In this document: piece by piece, positions 1 through 43,440 of the stretch
How the letters are laid out: every line of letters starts with the position of its first letter
How positions within the stretch are numbered: position 1 is the first letter of the stretch
Source of the DNA: Clostridia bacterium
GTDB taxonomy: Bacteria > Bacillota > Clostridia > Oscillospirales > CAG-272
DNA: 49,776 bases
Reading direction: 5' to 3'
Assembly: GCA_017463815.1 (NCBI GenBank)
Contig: JAFTOK010000169.1
Span: 1-49,776 of the forward strand
Notes under the pieces: generated by a model
Told to the model about the DNA's origin: nothing
Databases searched by the model: none
The model's input: the letters and a program-made list of their open reading frames with translations, nothing else
Translations under genes and position numbers: made by a program

Positions 1-35
1 GAAAAAGAAGATATACTTTCGGGCAAAACCAAAAG

Positions 36-148
36 CCTTCCCCAGTGGGGGAAGGTGGCAGCCGAAGGCTGACGGATGAGGTGTGCTGAACGCAAGGTTA
101 CTCCTCATCCACCGCTATCGCGGTCCCCCTTCTCCCACAGGAGAAGGC
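36..148. repeat. Nested-hairpin inverted-repeat element, short cargo-less copy with an alpha arm on the left and a beta arm on the right
   Basis: The left arm is CCTTCCCC-AGT-GGGGGAAGG, then GTGGCA, a GCC-GAA-GGC hairpin, and TGACGGATGAGG. The right arm is CCTCATCC, then ACCGC-TATC-GCGGT, CCCCC and TTCTCC-CAC-AGGAGAA. GGATGAGG and CCTCATCC can pair across a roughly 20-nt core. The 76..279 ORF is a translation of this repeat. Confidence 0.7.
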
Positions 149-8445: not shown

Positions 8446-8492
8446 ACACCTCATCAGTCCCTTACGGGACAGCTTCCCCTCAAGGGGAAGCC
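8446..8492. repeat. Solo alpha arm of the nested-hairpin repeat family, in reverse orientation
   Basis: The reverse complement is GGCTTCCCC-TTG-AGGGGAAG CTG TCCC-GTAA-GGGA CTGATGAGGTGT. It differs at only 4 positions from the arm at 39687-39733. Two of those positions form a compensatory pair in hairpin 2. Confidence 0.7.
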
Positions 8493-15640: not shown

Positions 15641-16627
15641 ATGCCAGGACCAGGTGGTGGTGGACACGGCGGCGGCGGTCATCGCGGAGGTGGCGGTCAT
15701 CGCGGAGGTGGCGGTCACGGCGGCTTCGGTGGAGGACCGGGTGGTGGCGGACCGAGAGGCTTCGGTGGAGGACCGGGCGGCTTCGGCGGCGGCCCTCGCG
15801 GTTTCGGAGGAGGCCCGCACGGACCTCACGGACCTCACGGACCCCACGGAGGTTGGGGCTGGAGGCGCAGACCTCGCCATTACGGCGGCGGTGGTTGCCT
15901 CGGCTTTATGTTGATGCCCATTATCTTAATCGTATTTGTGGTAGTTATTGCGGCTTCCTCGCTCGGCAGCGCGTTCACTGCCGTTTCAAGCGGCGGTGAA
16001 GTTGCGTACAATGAAACCGCGTTCGGCGATTACGCAAACGATCAGTACGCTGTGGAATTTTCAGATTCCACAGCGTACGAGGATAACCTTATGCTCGTTT
16101 TCCTCGTAGAAGATGACGAATATTACGATTACTACTACATTTCGTGGAAAGGCGACCACATAAACGAAGATATAGTCGAGCTTTTCGGCAACGAATACAC
16201 GGCGTATGGCAAGGCAATCAATTCCAAGGTGAACTCTTCCTCTTATAAATACTCGCTCGATTCCGACCTTGCAAGCGTTATAAACGCTATGGGCGAAAAA
16301 GTAGCATCGCTCGAGCTAACAACCTCGTTCACCTGCAACGAAGAGCACGTTGGCACAAAAAAATCTCACCTTGTGAACAATACAAGCCTGCCGCTCACGG
16401 AAAGCACCGTAAACGCGGCTCTCGAAAAATTCACAGAGGACACGGGCATTCCCGTTGTTTTGGTCGTAGAGGATATCGATGATGTTTTCGAGCGTACGAT
16501 GCCCGTCGGCGCGATTTTCACCATTATTTTGCTTATCGCCATTGTCGCTCTCGCGATTTACCTCATAGTTCGCTCTGTAAAAAAGCGCAAACAGTACGGC
16601 GAAAATGACAATCAGTATTATAACTAA
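15641..16627 (+). CDS. Bitopic or two-TM membrane protein with an N-terminal Gly/His/Pro/Arg low-complexity repeat region
   Basis: The RBS is AAGGAGG. The N-terminus is MPGPGGGGHGGGGHRGGGGHRGGGGHGGFGGGPGGGGPRGFGGGPGGFGGGPRGFGGGPHGPHGPHGPHGGWGW. This is followed by a TM segment, a roughly 190-aa acidic Tyr-rich domain, a second TM segment and a basic tail. Confidence 0.75.
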   Translation: MPGPGGGGHGGGGHRGGGGHRGGGGHGGFGGGPGGGGPRGFGGGPGGFGGGPRGFGGGPHGPHGPHGPHGGWGWRRRPRHYGGGGCLGFMLMPIILIVFVVVIAASSLGSAFTAVSSGGEVAYNETAFGDYANDQYAVEFSDSTAYEDNLMLVFLVEDDEYYDYYYISWKGDHINEDIVELFGNEYTAYGKAINSKVNSSSYKYSLDSDLASVINAMGEKVASLELTTSFTCNEEHVGTKKSHLVNNTSLPLTESTVNAALEKFTEDTGIPVVLVVEDIDDVFERTMPVGAIFTIILLIAIVALAIYLIVRSVKKRKQYGENDNQYYN

Positions 16628-16670: not shown

Positions 16671-16759
16671 AACATAGGAAATTGCGCGCAGTTCGTGCGC
16701 AATTTTGCTTCTTCAAACAAAGTTTTCCTTATGCAAAAACGCCCGAAAATCGGGCGTTT
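16671..16759. repeat. Copy A of a roughly 90-nt structured intergenic module (see also 27331-27417)
   Basis: AACATAGGAAATTGCGCGC...GCGCAATT...AGTTTTCCTTATGCAAAAACGCCCGAAAATCGGGCGTTT aligns along its whole length with 27331-27417. Confidence 0.65.
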
Positions 16760-16783
16760 CAGACTGTCGAAAAAGTGATTTAA

Positions 16784-16919
16784 GCCTCTCACTCTGGGAG
16801 AGGTGGCACTGTCAGGTGACGGAGAGGGCTATGATAAAAACCTAAAATTGCATCAAAAGTTTATATTTTTGATGTTTGCCCTCTCACCGCTGCGCGGAGC
16901 TCCCCCATAGGGGGGAGCC
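16784..16919. repeat. Nested-hairpin inverted-repeat element, short copy with an alpha arm on the left and a beta arm on the right
   Basis: The left arm is CCTCTC-ACTCT-GGGAGAGG TGGCA..TGAC GGAGAGGGC. The AT-rich core contains the CATCAAAA..TTTTGATG hairpin. The right arm is GCCCTCTC A CCGC-TGC-GCGG AG CTCCCCC-ATAG-GGGGGAG. Confidence 0.65.
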
Positions 16920-16988
16920 GAAAGTTAGTTTATCGACACGCTAAAACGCCCGAAAATCGGGCGTTTTTTAGTTTAAGAAGTCAACTTT

Positions 16989-38128: not shown

Positions 38129-39604
38129 TTAAATAAGTTTTTTGAACTTTTCGTAAGCTTCGTCCCATTCGTCTTTGTTTGCTTCGGGATAGAATTCTTC
38201 GATTTCAAAGGAATTTGCGATAATCTCGCGTGCTTCGCGGAGGTCTTTAACTTCGCCGCTTGCAATAGCCTGCGCCGCGATGTTGCCGAGTGCCGTTGCT
38301 TCTACGGGGCCTGTGAATACGGGTCTGCCGCAAGCGTTCGCCGCAAGCTGGGAAAGGAGCTTATCCTGCGTGCCGCCGCCCACGATATTGATTGCGGGCA
38401 TACGTTCGCCAACCATTTCGTCGATTTTTTCAACAGTCCATCTGTATCTCATCGCCAAGCTCTGGCTTATGCAACGAACGATTTCGCCGACTGTTTCGGG
38501 TATGGGCTGGTTTGTTTCCGCGCAGTATTCGCGGATTTTCTTCGGAATGTTGCCGGGAACGCCGAAACGGGGGTCGTCGGGGTCGATAAAGCTCTGCAAG
38601 GGTTTTGCCGCTTTGCCCATTTCAACAAGCTCGCCAAAGCCGTATGTAGTGCCCTCGCGAATCCACTGTCTGCGGGATTCCTGAAGGACCCAAAGACCCG
38701 TGATGTTTTTGGAGAAGCGGAACGTGCCGCCGTAGCCGCCTTCGTTTGTGAAGTTGTAAGCGGAGGATTTTTCGCTGATTTGCGGTTCTTTCGTTTCCGT
38801 ACCCATAATAGACCAAGTGCCGGAGCTTATCCAGATGAATTTATCGCTCTTTGCGGGAACTGCTACAACAGCAGAGGCTGTGTCGTGTGCGCCTACGGAG
38901 ATAACCGTGGGGTCTATGCCGCCGCATTCCTCTTTTACGTCTGCGCGGAGCTTGCCGCAAACCGTGCCGGGTTCAACGATGTCGGAGAAAATGTGCTTCG
39001 GCAAGCCGAATTTTTCGATAATTTCGTTCGACCAGTTTCTTGCGCGGGCGTCGAGGAGCTGGGATGTGGAGGCGATTGTATATTCCGTCTGCTTTTTGCC
39101 CGTGAGGAAGTAGTTGAGCAGGTCAGGCACGAAAAGCATATCCTTTGCAATGCCGAGAAGCTCGGGGTTTTCTTTCTGGAGCGCCAAGAGCTGGTAGAGG
39201 GAGTTGAAATCCATCACCTGAATGCCCGTTATGTCGTAAAGCTTTTCGCGGGGGAACGTTTTGAAGGCTTCTTCGGGAACGCCTACAGTTCTCGTATCTC
39301 TGTAATGTACGGGGTTGGCAAGAAGTCTGCCGTCTTTGCCAAGCAAGCCGAAGTCAACGCCCCAAGTGTCGATACCGATAGAAGCGATGTCTTTATCTTC
39401 GGAAAGCGCGCAGTTGCGAATGGACTGCTTGATTTCGTGGAAAATACGCAAAATATCCCACGTGAACTGCCCCGCCGCCATTGTGGGGTCGTTCGTGAAG
39501 CGGTGGTTTTCCGCCAGAGCGAATTTTTCGCCGTCGAAAGTGCCAACTATACCCCTGCCGCTGGACGCGCCGAGGTCGATGGCAAGCATTTTGAGTTTTT
39601 TCAT
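38129..39604 (-). CDS. rhaB: Rhamnulokinase
   Basis: It belongs to the FGGY kinase family, with LAIDLGASSGRGIV..., ...GIDTWGVDFGLL... and ...IVGGGTQDKLLSQL. The ATG at 39604 follows GGGAG. Confidence 0.88.
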   Translation of the reverse strand: MKKLKMLAIDLGASSGRGIVGTFDGEKFALAENHRFTNDPTMAAGQFTWDILRIFHEIKQSIRNCALSEDKDIASIGIDTWGVDFGLLGKDGRLLANPVHYRDTRTVGVPEEAFKTFPREKLYDITGIQVMDFNSLYQLLALQKENPELLGIAKDMLFVPDLLNYFLTGKKQTEYTIASTSQLLDARARNWSNEIIEKFGLPKHIFSDIVEPGTVCGKLRADVKEECGGIDPTVISVGAHDTASAVVAVPAKSDKFIWISSGTWSIMGTETKEPQISEKSSAYNFTNEGGYGGTFRFSKNITGLWVLQESRRQWIREGTTYGFGELVEMGKAAKPLQSFIDPDDPRFGVPGNIPKKIREYCAETNQPIPETVGEIVRCISQSLAMRYRWTVEKIDEMVGERMPAINIVGGGTQDKLLSQLAANACGRPVFTGPVEATALGNIAAQAIASGEVKDLREAREIIANSFEIEEFYPEANKDEWDEAYEKFKKLI

Positions 39605-39686
39605 TCTTTTCTCCCTTCCCCGCCTTTCTTTCACGGAAAGGCAGGTCTGTTATTTATATTCTTGTGTTTTTTAGTTGCTGGTTTTG

Positions 39687-39733
39687 GGCTTCCCCTAGAG
39701 GGGAAGCTGTCGCGAAAGCGACTGATGAGGTGT
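39687..39733 (+). repeat. Alpha arm of the nested-hairpin repeat family
   Basis: GGCTTCCCC-TAG-AGGGGAAG CTG TCGC-GAAA-GCGA CTGATGAGGTGT. It ends 1 nt (39734) before the stop codon of the 394-aa gene. Confidence 0.7.
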
Positions 39734-39734
39734 C

Positions 39735-40919
39735 TTATGAGTTTACACCAAAATAAATATTTTCTTTATCGACTAGCAAATCTAAAGGCTGATTATAAAG
39801 CCTATTAACCATATTTATATTATCTATAAAAGGCTCAGCAGAACTGTTTTCAAAAACAGAAATATATTCCATTGTACGTTCTGTACGCTTCTCTCCCAAA
39901 TCTGTTAGTTTATTTCCTTGTTCAATCAAATTTTCATCAATTTGAGATTTATTCACATATGGAATTTTTGCTACAATATTGCCAGCTGATTTGCTTACTT
40001 TTGCAACACCGCCAATAAAATGAGATTGTATGGATGATTTTGAATAAGTTTCTATTTGATTATAGCACTTTTTATAAAGTTCGCTATATGTCAGCTCAAA
40101 ATTTTCTATCTTTCTCGAAATCTGCGTCAAATATCCCTCATCAAAATTCTCAAGAAGCATTACACCTAAATATGCAGAAAATGCATATATGTATGATGCT
40201 AATTGATATTCTTTTAGTAAAGAAGATATTTCTTGCATTTTATTTTTCAAATCTTTATCTATATGAATTAAAGACTGCTTAACAAGTTTTTTATTTATAC
40301 GTTCTTGGTAGAATAAAATACTTGCTTCCGACTCTTGCATGATATCTAAAATTTTAATATAATTGCTATCTTTATACTGTTTATTAGACCAATTATATTT
40401 GTAATTATTTAATATATCAGAAAGCAACGAAAGATTAGCTTTCAAATTAGCTCGTTCTTTTTCTTCTAAAAATTCCAAAATTTCTTTCTGTGCTTCTCTT
40501 ATACTGTCAAGTTTTTGATTAACATTCATCAAAGCAACCGCCATAAAAAGCATTGTTGGGTCGCAAGCAAGCGGATTTAAACGAGCCTGCCCTCCGCCTA
40601 CCATACCGTCTTTATTTAAAACAGCGCCCAAATATGAATTTTCATACTTAAATTTAGCCAAACTACCGCCATTTGGCACAGTTACATAATACAACCCGCT
40701 TTTGGCTTTTCCTCTATTTATAATCGTTTGAACAGCCTGAGTTAATGGTTCAAAGGCAACTCCAAAAGACGAAAGTTCGGATAAAGGCAATTTTTTATAT
40801 TTGTCTAAATCCGTTTTTTCCAGCACCGCAGGAAGTGTAGGAAAAAACTCAATATTTGTCATAGCTTTAACGATATTTTCTTTTTCTAATATCAAAGATT
40901 TCTTGTTTTTTCCAAACAT
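39735..40919 (-). CDS. Hypothetical protein of 394 aa, an orphan with no domain I recognise
   Basis: It is a long clean ORF with the RBS GGAGAAAGAA-ATG. The mixed N-terminal region contains ...GLYYVTVPNGGSLAKFKYENSYLGAVLNKDGMVGGGQARLNP..., followed by a long predicted helical or coiled region. It has no TM segment and no Cys clusters. Confidence 0.75.
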   Translation of the reverse strand: MFGKNKKSLILEKENIVKAMTNIEFFPTLPAVLEKTDLDKYKKLPLSELSSFGVAFEPLTQAVQTIINRGKAKSGLYYVTVPNGGSLAKFKYENSYLGAVLNKDGMVGGGQARLNPLACDPTMLFMAVALMNVNQKLDSIREAQKEILEFLEEKERANLKANLSLLSDILNNYKYNWSNKQYKDSNYIKILDIMQESEASILFYQERINKKLVKQSLIHIDKDLKNKMQEISSLLKEYQLASYIYAFSAYLGVMLLENFDEGYLTQISRKIENFELTYSELYKKCYNQIETYSKSSIQSHFIGGVAKVSKSAGNIVAKIPYVNKSQIDENLIEQGNKLTDLGEKRTERTMEYISVFENSSAEPFIDNINMVNRLYNQPLDLLVDKENIYFGVNS

Positions 40920-40962
40920 TTCTTTCTCCGTGATTTTCTTAAAGAGTTAATTTATGTGCGTA

Positions 40963-41011
40963 GCATCCTCATCCACCGCAAGCGGTCCCCCTTCCCCCGC
41001 TTGGGGAAGGC
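40963..41011 (+). repeat. Beta arm of the nested-hairpin repeat family
   Basis: GCATCCTCATCC ACCGC-AA-GCGGT CCCCC TTCCCC-CGCT-TGGGGAAGG. It lies 17 nt from the mutS2 stop codon. Confidence 0.7.
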
Positions 41012-41028
41012 TCGGTGTCATTCTGTAT

Positions 41029-43440
41029 TTACCGCAGTTCCGCGATGGAAACGCCCGTATCGCCCTCGCCCCATTCGCCTATGCGGACGGAAAGCACGCG
41101 GGTGTCGCTTTTAAGGTATTCCGTCACACGTCTGCGGAGCACGCCCGTGCCCTTGCCGTGTACGATGCGGATTGTCTTCACGCCCACGCGCAGCGCGTCG
41201 TCGATGTATTTATCCACCATTTCGCACGCTTCGTCGCCGTATTTGCCGCGCAAATCGAGCTGCGGCGCAAAAGACGTTACCGCACGCTCCTGGTAGAACG
41301 AAATCGTCTTTTTCTTTTCTTTTTCCTTGCAGATGACCGTCTTGCCGTCTATGAGCATAAGGCGGGAGGAATTCATCTTCATCGTGGCGTTGCCGACCTT
41401 TACCATCACATTACCCTTTTTATCGGGCGCGGAGGTAACCTCGCCTTTTTTGTTGAGGTCTACTACGATAACGCCGTCGCCCACGCGTAGCTCGCGCGGT
41501 AGCTTATAATCGCCCATTTCCGTTTTGAAAACAGGGTCTATTTCGTCCGTGTTATCTTTGAGGTGGGCACGAATGGCTTTTCGCGTTTCCTCGAGGGTTT
41601 GGGCAAGGTTTTCTTTGTCCTTCTGCTTTTTCGCTTTTTCAAGCTCGGCAAAGATAAATTCGCTTGTGGCTTTCGCCGCCTCTACCATTCTGCGTGCCTG
41701 CTCGCGCGCTTTTTCAAGCTCTTTCTGCGCCTCCGCGAGCTTTTTCTCTGCCGCTTCGTCGCTTTCCTGCTTTTTCGCCGTCATTTCGGTGAGCAAAACG
41801 TCGGCGTCGGCGCGGCTTTTTTCCATCTTCATACGCTCGCTTTCGAGCTTGTCTATAACGCGCTCGAAGCGCTTATCCTCGCCGGAAACGAAGCGTTCGG
41901 CGCGCGCAAGTATCTCTGCGGGCAAGCCGAGCTTGCCGGAAATGGCAAAGGCATTGGATTTGCCGGGCGTACCTATTATAAGCTTATACGTTGGGCGAAG
42001 TGTTTCCACATCGAACTCGCAGGAGGCGTTGCAAACGCCGTCTGTATCCATAGCAAAAGATTTCAGCTCTACGTAGTGCGTGGTGGCGGCTATAAGCGCG
42101 TGCTTTTCGCGCATATTTTCAATAATCGCCATAGCGAGCGCCGCGCCCTCAATCGGGTCTGTGCCCGCTCCGAGCTCGTCAAAGAGCACGAGCGATTTAT
42201 CCGTAACTCTTTCTATTATATTTACAATCTTCACCATATGGGAAGAAAACGTGGAAAGCGATTGTTCTATGCTCTGTTCGTCGCCTATGTCGGCGAGGAT
42301 TTCGTCGAAGATGCACATAACAGAACCTTCGTTTGCGGGTATGTGCAAGCCCGCCTGCGTCATAAGAGCGAAAAGGCCGAGCGTTTTGAGCGTAACCGTC
42401 TTACCGCCCGTGTTGGGGCCCGTGATAATGAGCGTATCGAAATCTTTCCCAAGGCTCACGGTGACGGGCACGACAGTTTCCTTTGCTAAAAGCGGATGGC
42501 GCGCGGAAATAAGGCTTATTTCGCGCCCCTCGGAAATTTTCGGGCACATACCGTTGTAGGAAAAAGAAAGCTGTGCCTTTGCGAAAATGAACGCGAGGTC
42601 CGTTATAATTTCATAATCGGCTTTTATGCCGCCCGCCACGGCGGCAACTTCTGCGGAAAGCAGAGCTATTATGCGCTCTATTTCGTCCTTTTCCCTGCCC
42701 TCCAGCACGCGGAGCTCGTTGTTCGCCTCCACAACGCTCATCGGCTCTATAAAAAGCGTGGAGCCCGAAGCGGACGTGTCGTGAACAAGGCCTTTTATTT
42801 CGTTTTTGTATTCGAGCTTGACGGGGATAACGTATCTGCCGTCGCGCATCGTGATTATATTTTCCTGCAAATATTTTGCATACGTTCCGCCCGTCACGTA
42901 TTTTTGCAGGTTTTCGCGCACGCGGTTTTCCGCAGAACGCATTTTACGGCGGATGTTAAAAAGCTCGTCGGAAGCTGTGTCTGCCAGCGTTTCGGGGCCG
43001 ATAATCGCGCTGTTAATTTTGTCCTCCAGGTGCTTCTGCGGCACGAGGCGGTGGAAGTAATCGTCAAGAGCCGTGGGCTCTTCACCGTGGGCGAAAGCGT
43101 TGTACTCTTTCAGCGCGCGCGTAGCCGAAAGCACGCGGGCTACGGCAAGAAGCTCGGTAAGCTGGAGAGAGGCGCCCCTGTCCGCACGGTCGAGCGCGTC
43201 GAGTATATCGGAAACGCCGCCGAAAGGAGGCATTCCTTTCGCCGCGAGAGCCGTATATGCCGCGTCCGTTTCCGCGAGCGTCTTTTTTACCATCATCGCA
43301 GATGTCGTGGGCATAAGCTCGCGGGCGAGCGCCTTTGCGCCATCTGTGGGGGCAAAGTAGGCGAGCTTTTCGCGTATTTTATCAAATTCCAGCGCACGAA
43401 CGGCGCCTTCAAATCTTGTGTTTTCCATAGTGTTTATCAT
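41029..43440 (-). CDS. mutS2: Endonuclease MutS2
   Basis: It has the MutS ATPase Walker A (ITGPNTGGKTVTLK), ...LFDELGAGTDP... and a C-terminal Smr domain (LDLRGKYGDEA...IVHGKGTGVLR). Confidence 0.92.
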   Translation of the reverse strand: MINTMENTRFEGAVRALEFDKIREKLAYFAPTDGAKALARELMPTTSAMMVKKTLAETDAAYTALAAKGMPPFGGVSDILDALDRADRGASLQLTELLAVARVLSATRALKEYNAFAHGEEPTALDDYFHRLVPQKHLEDKINSAIIGPETLADTASDELFNIRRKMRSAENRVRENLQKYVTGGTYAKYLQENIITMRDGRYVIPVKLEYKNEIKGLVHDTSASGSTLFIEPMSVVEANNELRVLEGREKDEIERIIALLSAEVAAVAGGIKADYEIITDLAFIFAKAQLSFSYNGMCPKISEGREISLISARHPLLAKETVVPVTVSLGKDFDTLIITGPNTGGKTVTLKTLGLFALMTQAGLHIPANEGSVMCIFDEILADIGDEQSIEQSLSTFSSHMVKIVNIIERVTDKSLVLFDELGAGTDPIEGAALAMAIIENMREKHALIAATTHYVELKSFAMDTDGVCNASCEFDVETLRPTYKLIIGTPGKSNAFAISGKLGLPAEILARAERFVSGEDKRFERVIDKLESERMKMEKSRADADVLLTEMTAKKQESDEAAEKKLAEAQKELEKAREQARRMVEAAKATSEFIFAELEKAKKQKDKENLAQTLEETRKAIRAHLKDNTDEIDPVFKTEMGDYKLPRELRVGDGVIVVDLNKKGEVTSAPDKKGNVMVKVGNATMKMNSSRLMLIDGKTVICKEKEKKKTISFYQERAVTSFAPQLDLRGKYGDEACEMVDKYIDDALRVGVKTIRIVHGKGTGVLRRRVTEYLKSDTRVLSVRIGEWGEGDTGVSIAELR

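Follow-up and report, generated by a model that had tools for sequence, protein, structure and literature searches.

How did an AT-rich gene come to lie between two inverted hairpin repeats in the spacer of a conserved gene pair? The question is raised by a 49,776-nt contig of a Clostridia bacterium (Oscillospirales, CAG-272; JAFTOK010000169.1 in assembly GCA_017463815.1), which was analysed over its full length and is called the window below. The gene is an open reading frame (ORF) of 394 amino acids (aa), bounded on each side by a structured repeat termed an arm, and the arm-ORF-arm block separates mutS2 from the FGGY kinase gene rhaB. The explanation that fits best, to which we give a probability of about 60%, is that the block represents an accessory cassette of one gene, acquired horizontally long ago and located in the spacer between mutS2 and rhaB, and that this gene lies inside a palindromic intergenic repeat, at its centre.

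The block as a unit of presence and absence at the mutS2-rhaB junction

Read on the ORF strand, the mutS2 stop codon (41029-41031) is followed by an arm, an AT-rich leader of about 45 nt with a ribosome-binding site, the ORF, and an inverted arm 1 nt past the ORF stop codon. The GC fraction of the ORF is 0.305, compared with 0.536 in mutS2, 0.528 in rhaB, and 0.484 in the whole window. A first-pass annotation, made from the sequence without database searches, had described this arrangement, and its observations are borne out. The ORF and its arm distances (1 nt to the stop codon, 17 nt from the arm to the mutS2 stop) were exact, Pfam confirms MutS2 and the FGGY kinase as the neighbours, and the interior is indeed much more AT-rich than its flanks.

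The junction was surveyed in one genome per species, scanned with MutS2. The order mutS2-rhaB-rhaA is kept across many related metagenome-assembled genomes (MAGs). In nine related species (L013, L014-L020, and L070) the site is empty: mutS2 adjoins rhaB across a spacer of 60-350 nt that holds neither the ORF nor an arm. The comparison with empty sites, which had been proposed at first pass, defines the boundaries of the insertion. When the window is aligned with L013, its closest relative (MutS2 95% identical), homology ends at TAAATACAGAATG on the mutS2 side and returns at CAAAA..CAG.AACTAAAAA on the rhaB side, and these breakpoints are the outer ends of both arms within about 7 nt. Within the spacer of 17 nt that separates the mutS2 stop from the upstream arm, the first 10 nt match the L013 empty site and the other 7 nt or so read ACACCGA on the ORF strand. 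Since the breakpoints fall at the outer arm ends, the inserted block consists of arm, leader, ORF, and arm. These data show that the arm-ORF-arm block is the unit of presence and absence among related species.

The ORF occupies this junction in two other lineages as well. In three metagenomes of the Joint Genome Institute (L001-L003) the ORF is 79% identical and MutS2 is 90% identical. The 5' leader is still present in L001; of the upstream arm, about 35 nt have been lost by an internal deletion, and the inner end (GGTGGATGAGGATGCT) remains. In L213 the ORF is 73% identical, and the mutS2 3' end and the rhaB leader resemble those of L015, L017, and L020. The upstream arm of L213 is intact and of the same variant as in the window (E 1.4e-10), and downstream, at L213:2066-2150, the three-hairpin architecture of an arm is found in inverted orientation (z -3.3). 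The first-pass annotation had set the tie between gene and arms against the possibility that relatives carry the ORF here without arms and that arms are generic hairpins. The outcome is divided: in L001 the upstream arm is shortened and a downstream arm is not clearly recognisable, and solo arms are common; in L213 the arms are intact, and at the empty sites arms and ORF are missing alike.

The descent of the ORF was compared with that of its hosts. The ORF identities of 79, 73, and 71% follow the host order, and the gene tree agrees with the host tree; the flanks group as (window, L013) and (L001, L014). The dN/dS ratio between the window and L001 copies is 0.077, with dS at least as high as in the flanks, showing that the ORF is under purifying selection. 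Since the ORF shares its junction in two other lineages, one of them with arms on both sides, the block is old and patchily distributed. Most simply, these data are read as one ancient insertion in which arms were already present, followed by inheritance as a block. On the same reading, the block was lost cleanly in several lineages, or a long-lived presence/absence polymorphism was resolved by recombination in the conserved flanks.

The empty spacers were also found to be hypervariable (L015:8410-8645, L017:8398-8745, L014:8410-8760). Those of L015 and L017 hold tandem modules of GTGAAAT plus a short GC hairpin, and in L014 and L017 the rhaB leader is tandemly duplicated. A conserved hairpin, (G/A)CCTTTC-N-GAAAGAAAGG(C/T), stands directly 5' of the rhaB ribosome-binding site in the window (39612-39640, minus strand) and in all relatives. 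It may regulate the rhamnose genes, since it is kept across species and duplicated along with the leader. The true start of rhaB is near 39583 by alignment with relatives, and tblastn matches begin at residue 18 of the listed ORF.

The arms as ordinary members of an abundant two-hairpin family

The arm motif is 47 nt long. It consists of a conserved first hairpin of 8-9 bp, (G/C)CTTCCCC-loop-GGGGAAG(G/C), a short linker, a covarying second hairpin whose sequence varies freely, and a GATGAGG end that pairs with the CCTCATC of a partner arm. The linker comes in at least three variants, GTGGC...CGGATGAGG, CTGTC...GACTGATGAGG, and GGGGACCGC...GCGGTGGATGAGG, and any pairing of them occurs; in L156 the first variant is paired with the second, and the third is also paired with the second. 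On the ORF strand the upstream arm reads GCCTTCCCC-AAGC-GGGGGAAGG GGG ACCGC-TT-GCGGT GGATGAGG, its variant being GGGGGACCGC...GCGGTGGATGAGG. The downstream arm is reverse-complemented relative to the ORF and carries GCTGTC-hairpin-GACTGATGAGG; it shares 92% identity with a solo arm at 8446-8492 and 91% with an arm of L092, a distant genome. The two arm types named alpha and beta at first pass are thus one motif in opposite orientations, whose variants combine freely.

A covariance model of the arm (R1) was built from 54 arms and used to scan the window (Table 1). Seven arms were found, all intergenic: three convergent pairs and one solo arm, with no partner arm near the latter. The pair around the ORF was recovered at the places first described, in the same convergent plus/minus layout as in both short copies. 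Terminal inverted repeats are present, as both arms are inverted copies of one motif, and the short copies fold as long hairpins (z -7.6 and -4.9). The copy at 16783-16919 differs by compensatory changes and is an insertion relative to the paralogous intergenic region 27300-27444. Around that copy, in 16739-16967, the insertion also includes additional inverted flank of about 22 nt per side, and two full terminator hairpins AAAACGCCCGAAAATCGGGCGTTT bracket it. The insertion may have generated a long palindromic duplication, or it may have targeted a hairpin.

Table 1. Arms, arm pairs, and genes of the block and its flanks in the window.
Feature	Position	Strand	Evidence
Upstream arm (first called beta)	40964-41011	minus	R1 43 bits, E 1e-10
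Downstream arm (first called alpha)	39687-39733	plus	R1 60.7 bits, E 8e-16
ORF, 394 aa	39735-40919	minus	GC 0.305; single ORF between the arm pair
AT-rich 5' leader of the ORF with GGAG ribosome-binding site	40920-40963	minus	Sequence; homologous to L001 leader
17-nt spacer, mutS2 stop to upstream arm	41012-41028	minus	Alignment with L013 empty site
mutS2, upstream flank, same strand as the ORF	41029-43440	minus	Pfam MutS_V, MSSS, Smr
rhaB (FGGY kinase), downstream flank	38129-39583	minus	Pfam FGGY_N, FGGY_C
Short complete copy, two convergent arms, 15-nt centre	35-148		R1 at 35-84 (+) and 100-148 (-); fold z -7.6
Short complete copy, divergent variant, 46-nt AT-rich centre	16783-16919		R1 at 16783-16830 (+) and 16877-16919 (-)
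Solo arm, variant as in 39687-39733, in a divergent intergenic region	8446-8492	minus	R1 60.8 bits

The structure of the second hairpin is conserved beyond its sequence. All 108 distinct second-hairpin sequences fold with at least 4 bp, compared with 71% of shuffled controls, and the mean energy is -9.3 compared with -4.2 kcal/mol in those controls. The family is also widely spread. An exact arm pattern, CTTCCCC-N3-6-GGGGAAG-N14-24-GATGAGG, was found in at least 120 IMG/VR contigs, and arms of 91-100% identity are present even in genomes where MutS2 matches that of the window at only about 53% identity. The arm motif is very abundant in gut Clostridia and in IMG/VR contigs classed as viral, and the two arms around the ORF are shown to be ordinary members of this family.

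An nhmmer search over all 2.2 Mb of fetched loci gave 211 arms and 19 convergent neighbouring pairs. The usual forms are solo arms, which are common, and convergent pairs of 110-230 nt; same-strand solos dominate the other contigs. The arms are 17-148 nt apart in 17 of the 19 pairs, and the two remaining pairs are the one around the ORF (1234 nt) and one in L179 (2473 nt). The L179 pair was considered as a second gene-bearing unit and set aside as a likely chance pair, enclosing about 2.5 kb of several genes of native GC. No transposase-sized gene was found inside a convergent pair among the 211 arms. Arm pairs thus do not in general enclose genes, which counts against the first-pass suggestion of a cargo-carrying form as a general feature of the family.

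No consistent target-site duplication was found at 20 inspected elements, including the three pairs of the window, and the palindrome often continues into the flanks. Rfam gave no match at the gathering score over the whole window and nothing relevant in a permissive scan of positions 1-250; on 12 arm-rich contigs it returned one tRNA only. Literature searches with arm sequence strings, and with MITE or REPIN (terms explained below) combined with taxon names, gave nothing useful on the repeat. A hammerhead ribozyme, suggested by CTGATGAG in the downstream arm, was rejected because other variants read CGGATGAGG or GTGGATGAGG, no stem II and GAAA follow, and Rfam finds nothing.

By behaviour, the family is closest to repetitive extragenic palindromes (REPs) and REPINs, with some features of miniature inverted-repeat transposable elements (MITEs). 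REPINs are inverted REP doublets mobilised by REP-associated tyrosine transposases (RAYTs), and together with the bacterial interspersed mosaic elements (BIMEs) of enterobacteria they are the known systems closest to the arms. Like these, the arms are extragenic, GC-rich, and hairpin-forming, have many copies per genome, are found both singly and as inverted doublets whose spacer is short and variable, show no target-site duplication, and combine conserved sequence with covarying stems. They also sit next to gene ends, which would fit an mRNA-stabilising role. Unlike REPs and REPINs, the arm is a 47-nt module of two hairpins with a conserved GATGAGG inner stem, and near-identical arms are found across many Clostridia species and viral-class contigs. 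A RAYT gene, of the Y1/HUH type and typically flanked by REPs, was not found linked to the arms on the one 49.8-kb MAG contig, the genes of which were only partly scanned with Pfam; an HUH/Y1 motif had not been noticed at first pass either. To our knowledge, no REPIN enclosing a 1.2-kb gene has been described.

Similarly to MITEs, the repeat has terminal inverted repeats, a length of 110-230 nt, an AT-rich variable centre, and many copies, the ordinary ones being non-coding. In contrast to MITEs, target-site duplications are absent at the 20 inspected elements, the inverted symmetry often extends into the flanks, solo arms are frequent, and no parent insertion sequence with arm-type ends was found in the fetched loci. 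The block also differs from an integron cassette, which consists of an ORF and an attC site with R''/L''-L'/R' core sites and belongs to arrays beside an intI gene: the arms lack the GTTRRRY core and stand on both sides of the ORF and not 3' only, no integrase is adjacent, and the neighbours of the ORF are mutS2 and rhaB.

On the viral-class contigs (IMG/VR loci L093-L212, for example L104, L139, and L168), the many arms lie mostly on one strand per contig. The outer arm end is often 0-30 nt from an opposite-strand ribosome-binding site, a bias that is qualitative only, given crude ORF calling in GC-rich DNA. This suggests an orientation-dependent role of the arms in transcripts. At L040:5640-5945, a 197-nt repeat copy is flanked by a direct repeat of about 36 nt (GAAGGCTCTGGCACAATGAATTTC...). 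The upstream copy of the direct repeat comes after another short hairpin ending in GAAGGC, and the whole looks like tandem elements.

The gene, its protein family, and its neighbourhoods

The 394-aa protein is one of a large Firmicutes family, the members of which are nearly all 380-400 aa long. More than 1263 homologues were found at E <= 1e-3 in a set of 5.8 billion sequences, and another search gave 948 clusters at 50% identity; the phage and the plasmid collections each returned one weak match. In low-GC Firmicutes, Bacillus and Neobacillus among them, the composition of family members is that of the host, and only in hosts of higher GC do they stand out as AT-rich islands. A foreign origin of the ORF, proposed at first pass, is supported, because the ORF is AT-rich, is absent from the closest relatives, and comes from a family native to low-GC Firmicutes. 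About 75 homologue loci from genomes, metagenomes, and three viral contigs were examined, and arms were found at L213 only. No inverted repeats were found around homologues in six other genomes.

The sole other region of the window as AT-rich as the ORF is an island at 32500-34100 (GC 0.28-0.33), between DUF4364 and prs. It contains ORFs of 365 aa, weakly matching Peptidase_C39_2, and of 151 aa, matching nothing in Pfam. Because this island has no flanking arms, foreign DNA enters this genome without arms as well.

Searches with Pfam, PHROGs, and NCBIfam on the ORF, and with Pfam on 72 family members, returned noise only. In PADLOC-DB 2.0 the best match, to E1-E2 (E 0.019, 11.5 bits), is at noise level, and sequence-profile searches of the PDB found nothing. 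AlphaFold was used to model the protein, with a mean predicted local distance difference test (pLDDT) score of 64, rising to 75 with a 72-sequence alignment. The latter model predicts a small alpha/beta domain (residues about 40-118), then seven long helices and two short C-terminal strands, that is, an elongated helical bundle after a small N-terminal domain. Foldseek comparison of both models with the PDB gave nothing significant (best E 0.058-0.12, template-modelling (TM) score <= 0.26). In BFVD, the sole real structural match was an uncharacterised homologue from a gut siphovirus.

Among the top Foldseek results for both models, alpha-helical pore-forming toxins of the ClyA type recur at E 0.06-0.8 and TM 0.15-0.26, values that are not significant. 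The predicted elongated bundle of 30-36-residue helices resembles that of the ClyA family (AhlB/C, SmhB, MakE, YaxA); unlike these toxins, the ORF protein has no signal peptide and has an extra N-terminal beta domain. The resemblance of the models is taken as a lead only.

No conserved partner gene was found across the homologue loci. At several of 40 non-redundant loci the neighbours are defence genes or mobile elements, and at the others they are housekeeping genes, in a count made without a background rate. Homologues lie beside HsdR, McrB, and McrC (L276), a BrxL/Gabija-like set of BrxL, AAA_15/21, and a UvrD-like protein (L007), tyrosine integrases (L005, L008), and a phage-type replication module of PolA and primase (L278). 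PADLOC matches among the neighbours comprise type I restriction-modification, PDC-S01, PDC-S11, PDC-S68, and Sir2. Such a profile is typical of a free-standing accessory gene of defence or of mobile elements. The family resembles the single-gene anti-phage or abortive-infection genes of defence islands and prophages, which stand alone with variable neighbours near restriction-modification, McrBC, BREX, candidate defence systems, and integrases. As for genes of defence islands, its composition is foreign in high-GC hosts and its presence is patchy among close relatives. Unlike known defence genes, the ORF matches no PADLOC-DB 2.0 model, and the family is also found beside housekeeping genes. 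On gene context, the protein may tentatively be regarded as a defence-type effector, possibly membrane-active, at less than even odds. With about 950 clusters that have no Pfam, PADLOC, or PDB relative and that occur beside defence systems and mobile elements, the family is new in the libraries checked and is a cheap candidate for phage-challenge screening.

Explanations for the association of gene and arms

The gene is best viewed as a captured passenger, not as an autonomous element, since some 75 homologue loci have no arms and lie in defence islands, by integrases, and in phage modules; the passenger is probably defence-related. Among the options named at first pass, the one that fits best is the capture of a foreign accessory or defence-type gene between two arms. 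In the sequence of events that we propose, the gene would have inserted into a repeat copy already resident there, in its AT-rich centre, or gained flanking arms early. From then on the block would have been inherited whole. Several lineages would later have lost it in a clean manner, the probable route being homologous replacement across the conserved flanking genes mutS2 and rhaB.

No terminator-like site was found after mutS2 on the minus strand, as had been noted at first pass, and a scan of the ORF leader found no sigma-70-like promoter site. Because both are missing, read-through from mutS2 is inferred, and co-transcription of the ORF with mutS2 is plausible from the sequence. The GC-rich hairpins at both ends of the block might delimit or stabilise the ORF mRNA, as REP elements do, and the protein would act as a stand-alone effector of the anti-phage or abortive-infection type.

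Several points weigh against the proposal of an old cassette inherited as a block. Vertical descent requires at least three clean losses. Insertion of the gene into a resident repeat predicts a bare repeat copy in the mutS2-rhaB spacer, and none was found in the relatives. The downstream side of L001 is vaguely arm-like, a remnant indistinguishable from chance (z -1.1), and the three lineages (window, L001, and L213) do not share one sequence variant of the downstream arm. The role of the hairpins in RNA is drawn by analogy with REP elements. Similarly, the defence role is drawn from the gene neighbourhood, and PADLOC, Pfam, NCBIfam, PDB sequence, and Foldseek comparisons are without a significant match.

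The losses lead to the question of whether the block moves by itself. In a cargo-carrying mobile element, the arms would be REPIN- or MITE-like ends at which an enzyme acting in trans precisely inserts and excises a 1.3-kb arm-gene-arm unit. Such an element would account for insertion boundaries that coincide with the outer arm ends, for clean empty sites without remnants in sister species, and for a patchy presence that would otherwise need several precise losses; repeat centres already vary from 17 to 148 nt, so larger ones are conceivable. What speaks against it is that the unit has been seen at one chromosomal site only, in three lineages whose gene tree equals the host tree. Furthermore, no other gene-bearing pair was found among the 211 arms, the L179 pair holding native-GC genes; target-site duplications are absent at all 20 elements; and no transposase or RAYT gene is linked to the arms on the 49.8-kb contig, with its genes partly scanned. 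We consider this explanation unlikely, though it keeps some weight.

It is doubtful, too, that the arm pair is a working mobilisation module, a REPIN-like palindrome with a 1.2-kb passenger moved by a trans-acting enzyme that recognises the two-hairpin arms. If it were, the clean empty sites of the sister species would be explained, and a very abundant repeat of gut Clostridia and their phages would be a vehicle for accessory and defence genes.

The foreign gene could also have come by other means, with two solo arms inserted later and independently, one on each side. Solo arms do exist, at 8446-8492 and directly after a gene in L092, and same-strand solos prevail in other contigs. Moreover, the two flanking arms are different variants, the downstream one not being constant between lineages. 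Against such a coincidence, the window and L213 share the variant of the upstream arm and also its distance from the start codon, so that this arm predates the split of the two lineages. The arms are also convergent as in complete elements, their inner stems are complementary (GATGAGG and CCTCATC), and both arm ends fall on indel boundaries. Independent arrival of the arms is accordingly held to be quite improbable.

That the 394-aa protein is the enzyme moving the repeat family, an autonomous form considered at first pass with the ORF being the sole one between the arm pair of the window, can practically be dismissed, as about 950 family clusters across Firmicutes are essentially all without arms, arms abound in contigs without the gene, and the predicted helical bundle with a small beta domain has no catalytic family match and no nuclease or recombinase signature.

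With the old inherited cassette as the preferred explanation, two further findings are new in the libraries checked: a presence/absence unit in which a gene is bounded exactly by repeat arms, and a structured, palindromic repeat without an Rfam family that is very abundant in gut Clostridia and in viral-class contigs. If the arms mediate gain and loss, they would represent a new route of accessory-gene shuffling in uncultured gut anaerobes. If they do not, the locus is a clean example of a hypervariable spacer serving as a landing pad beside a conserved gene pair.

Two other repeats were observed elsewhere in the window. A tandem repeat with a period of 18/36 nt at 15653-15829 encodes a Gly/His-rich stretch within the ORF 15641-16627. 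Two adjacent paralogous segments, 26263-26591 and 26818-27146, lie 555 nt apart, are 73-80% identical, and include the starts of two small genes.

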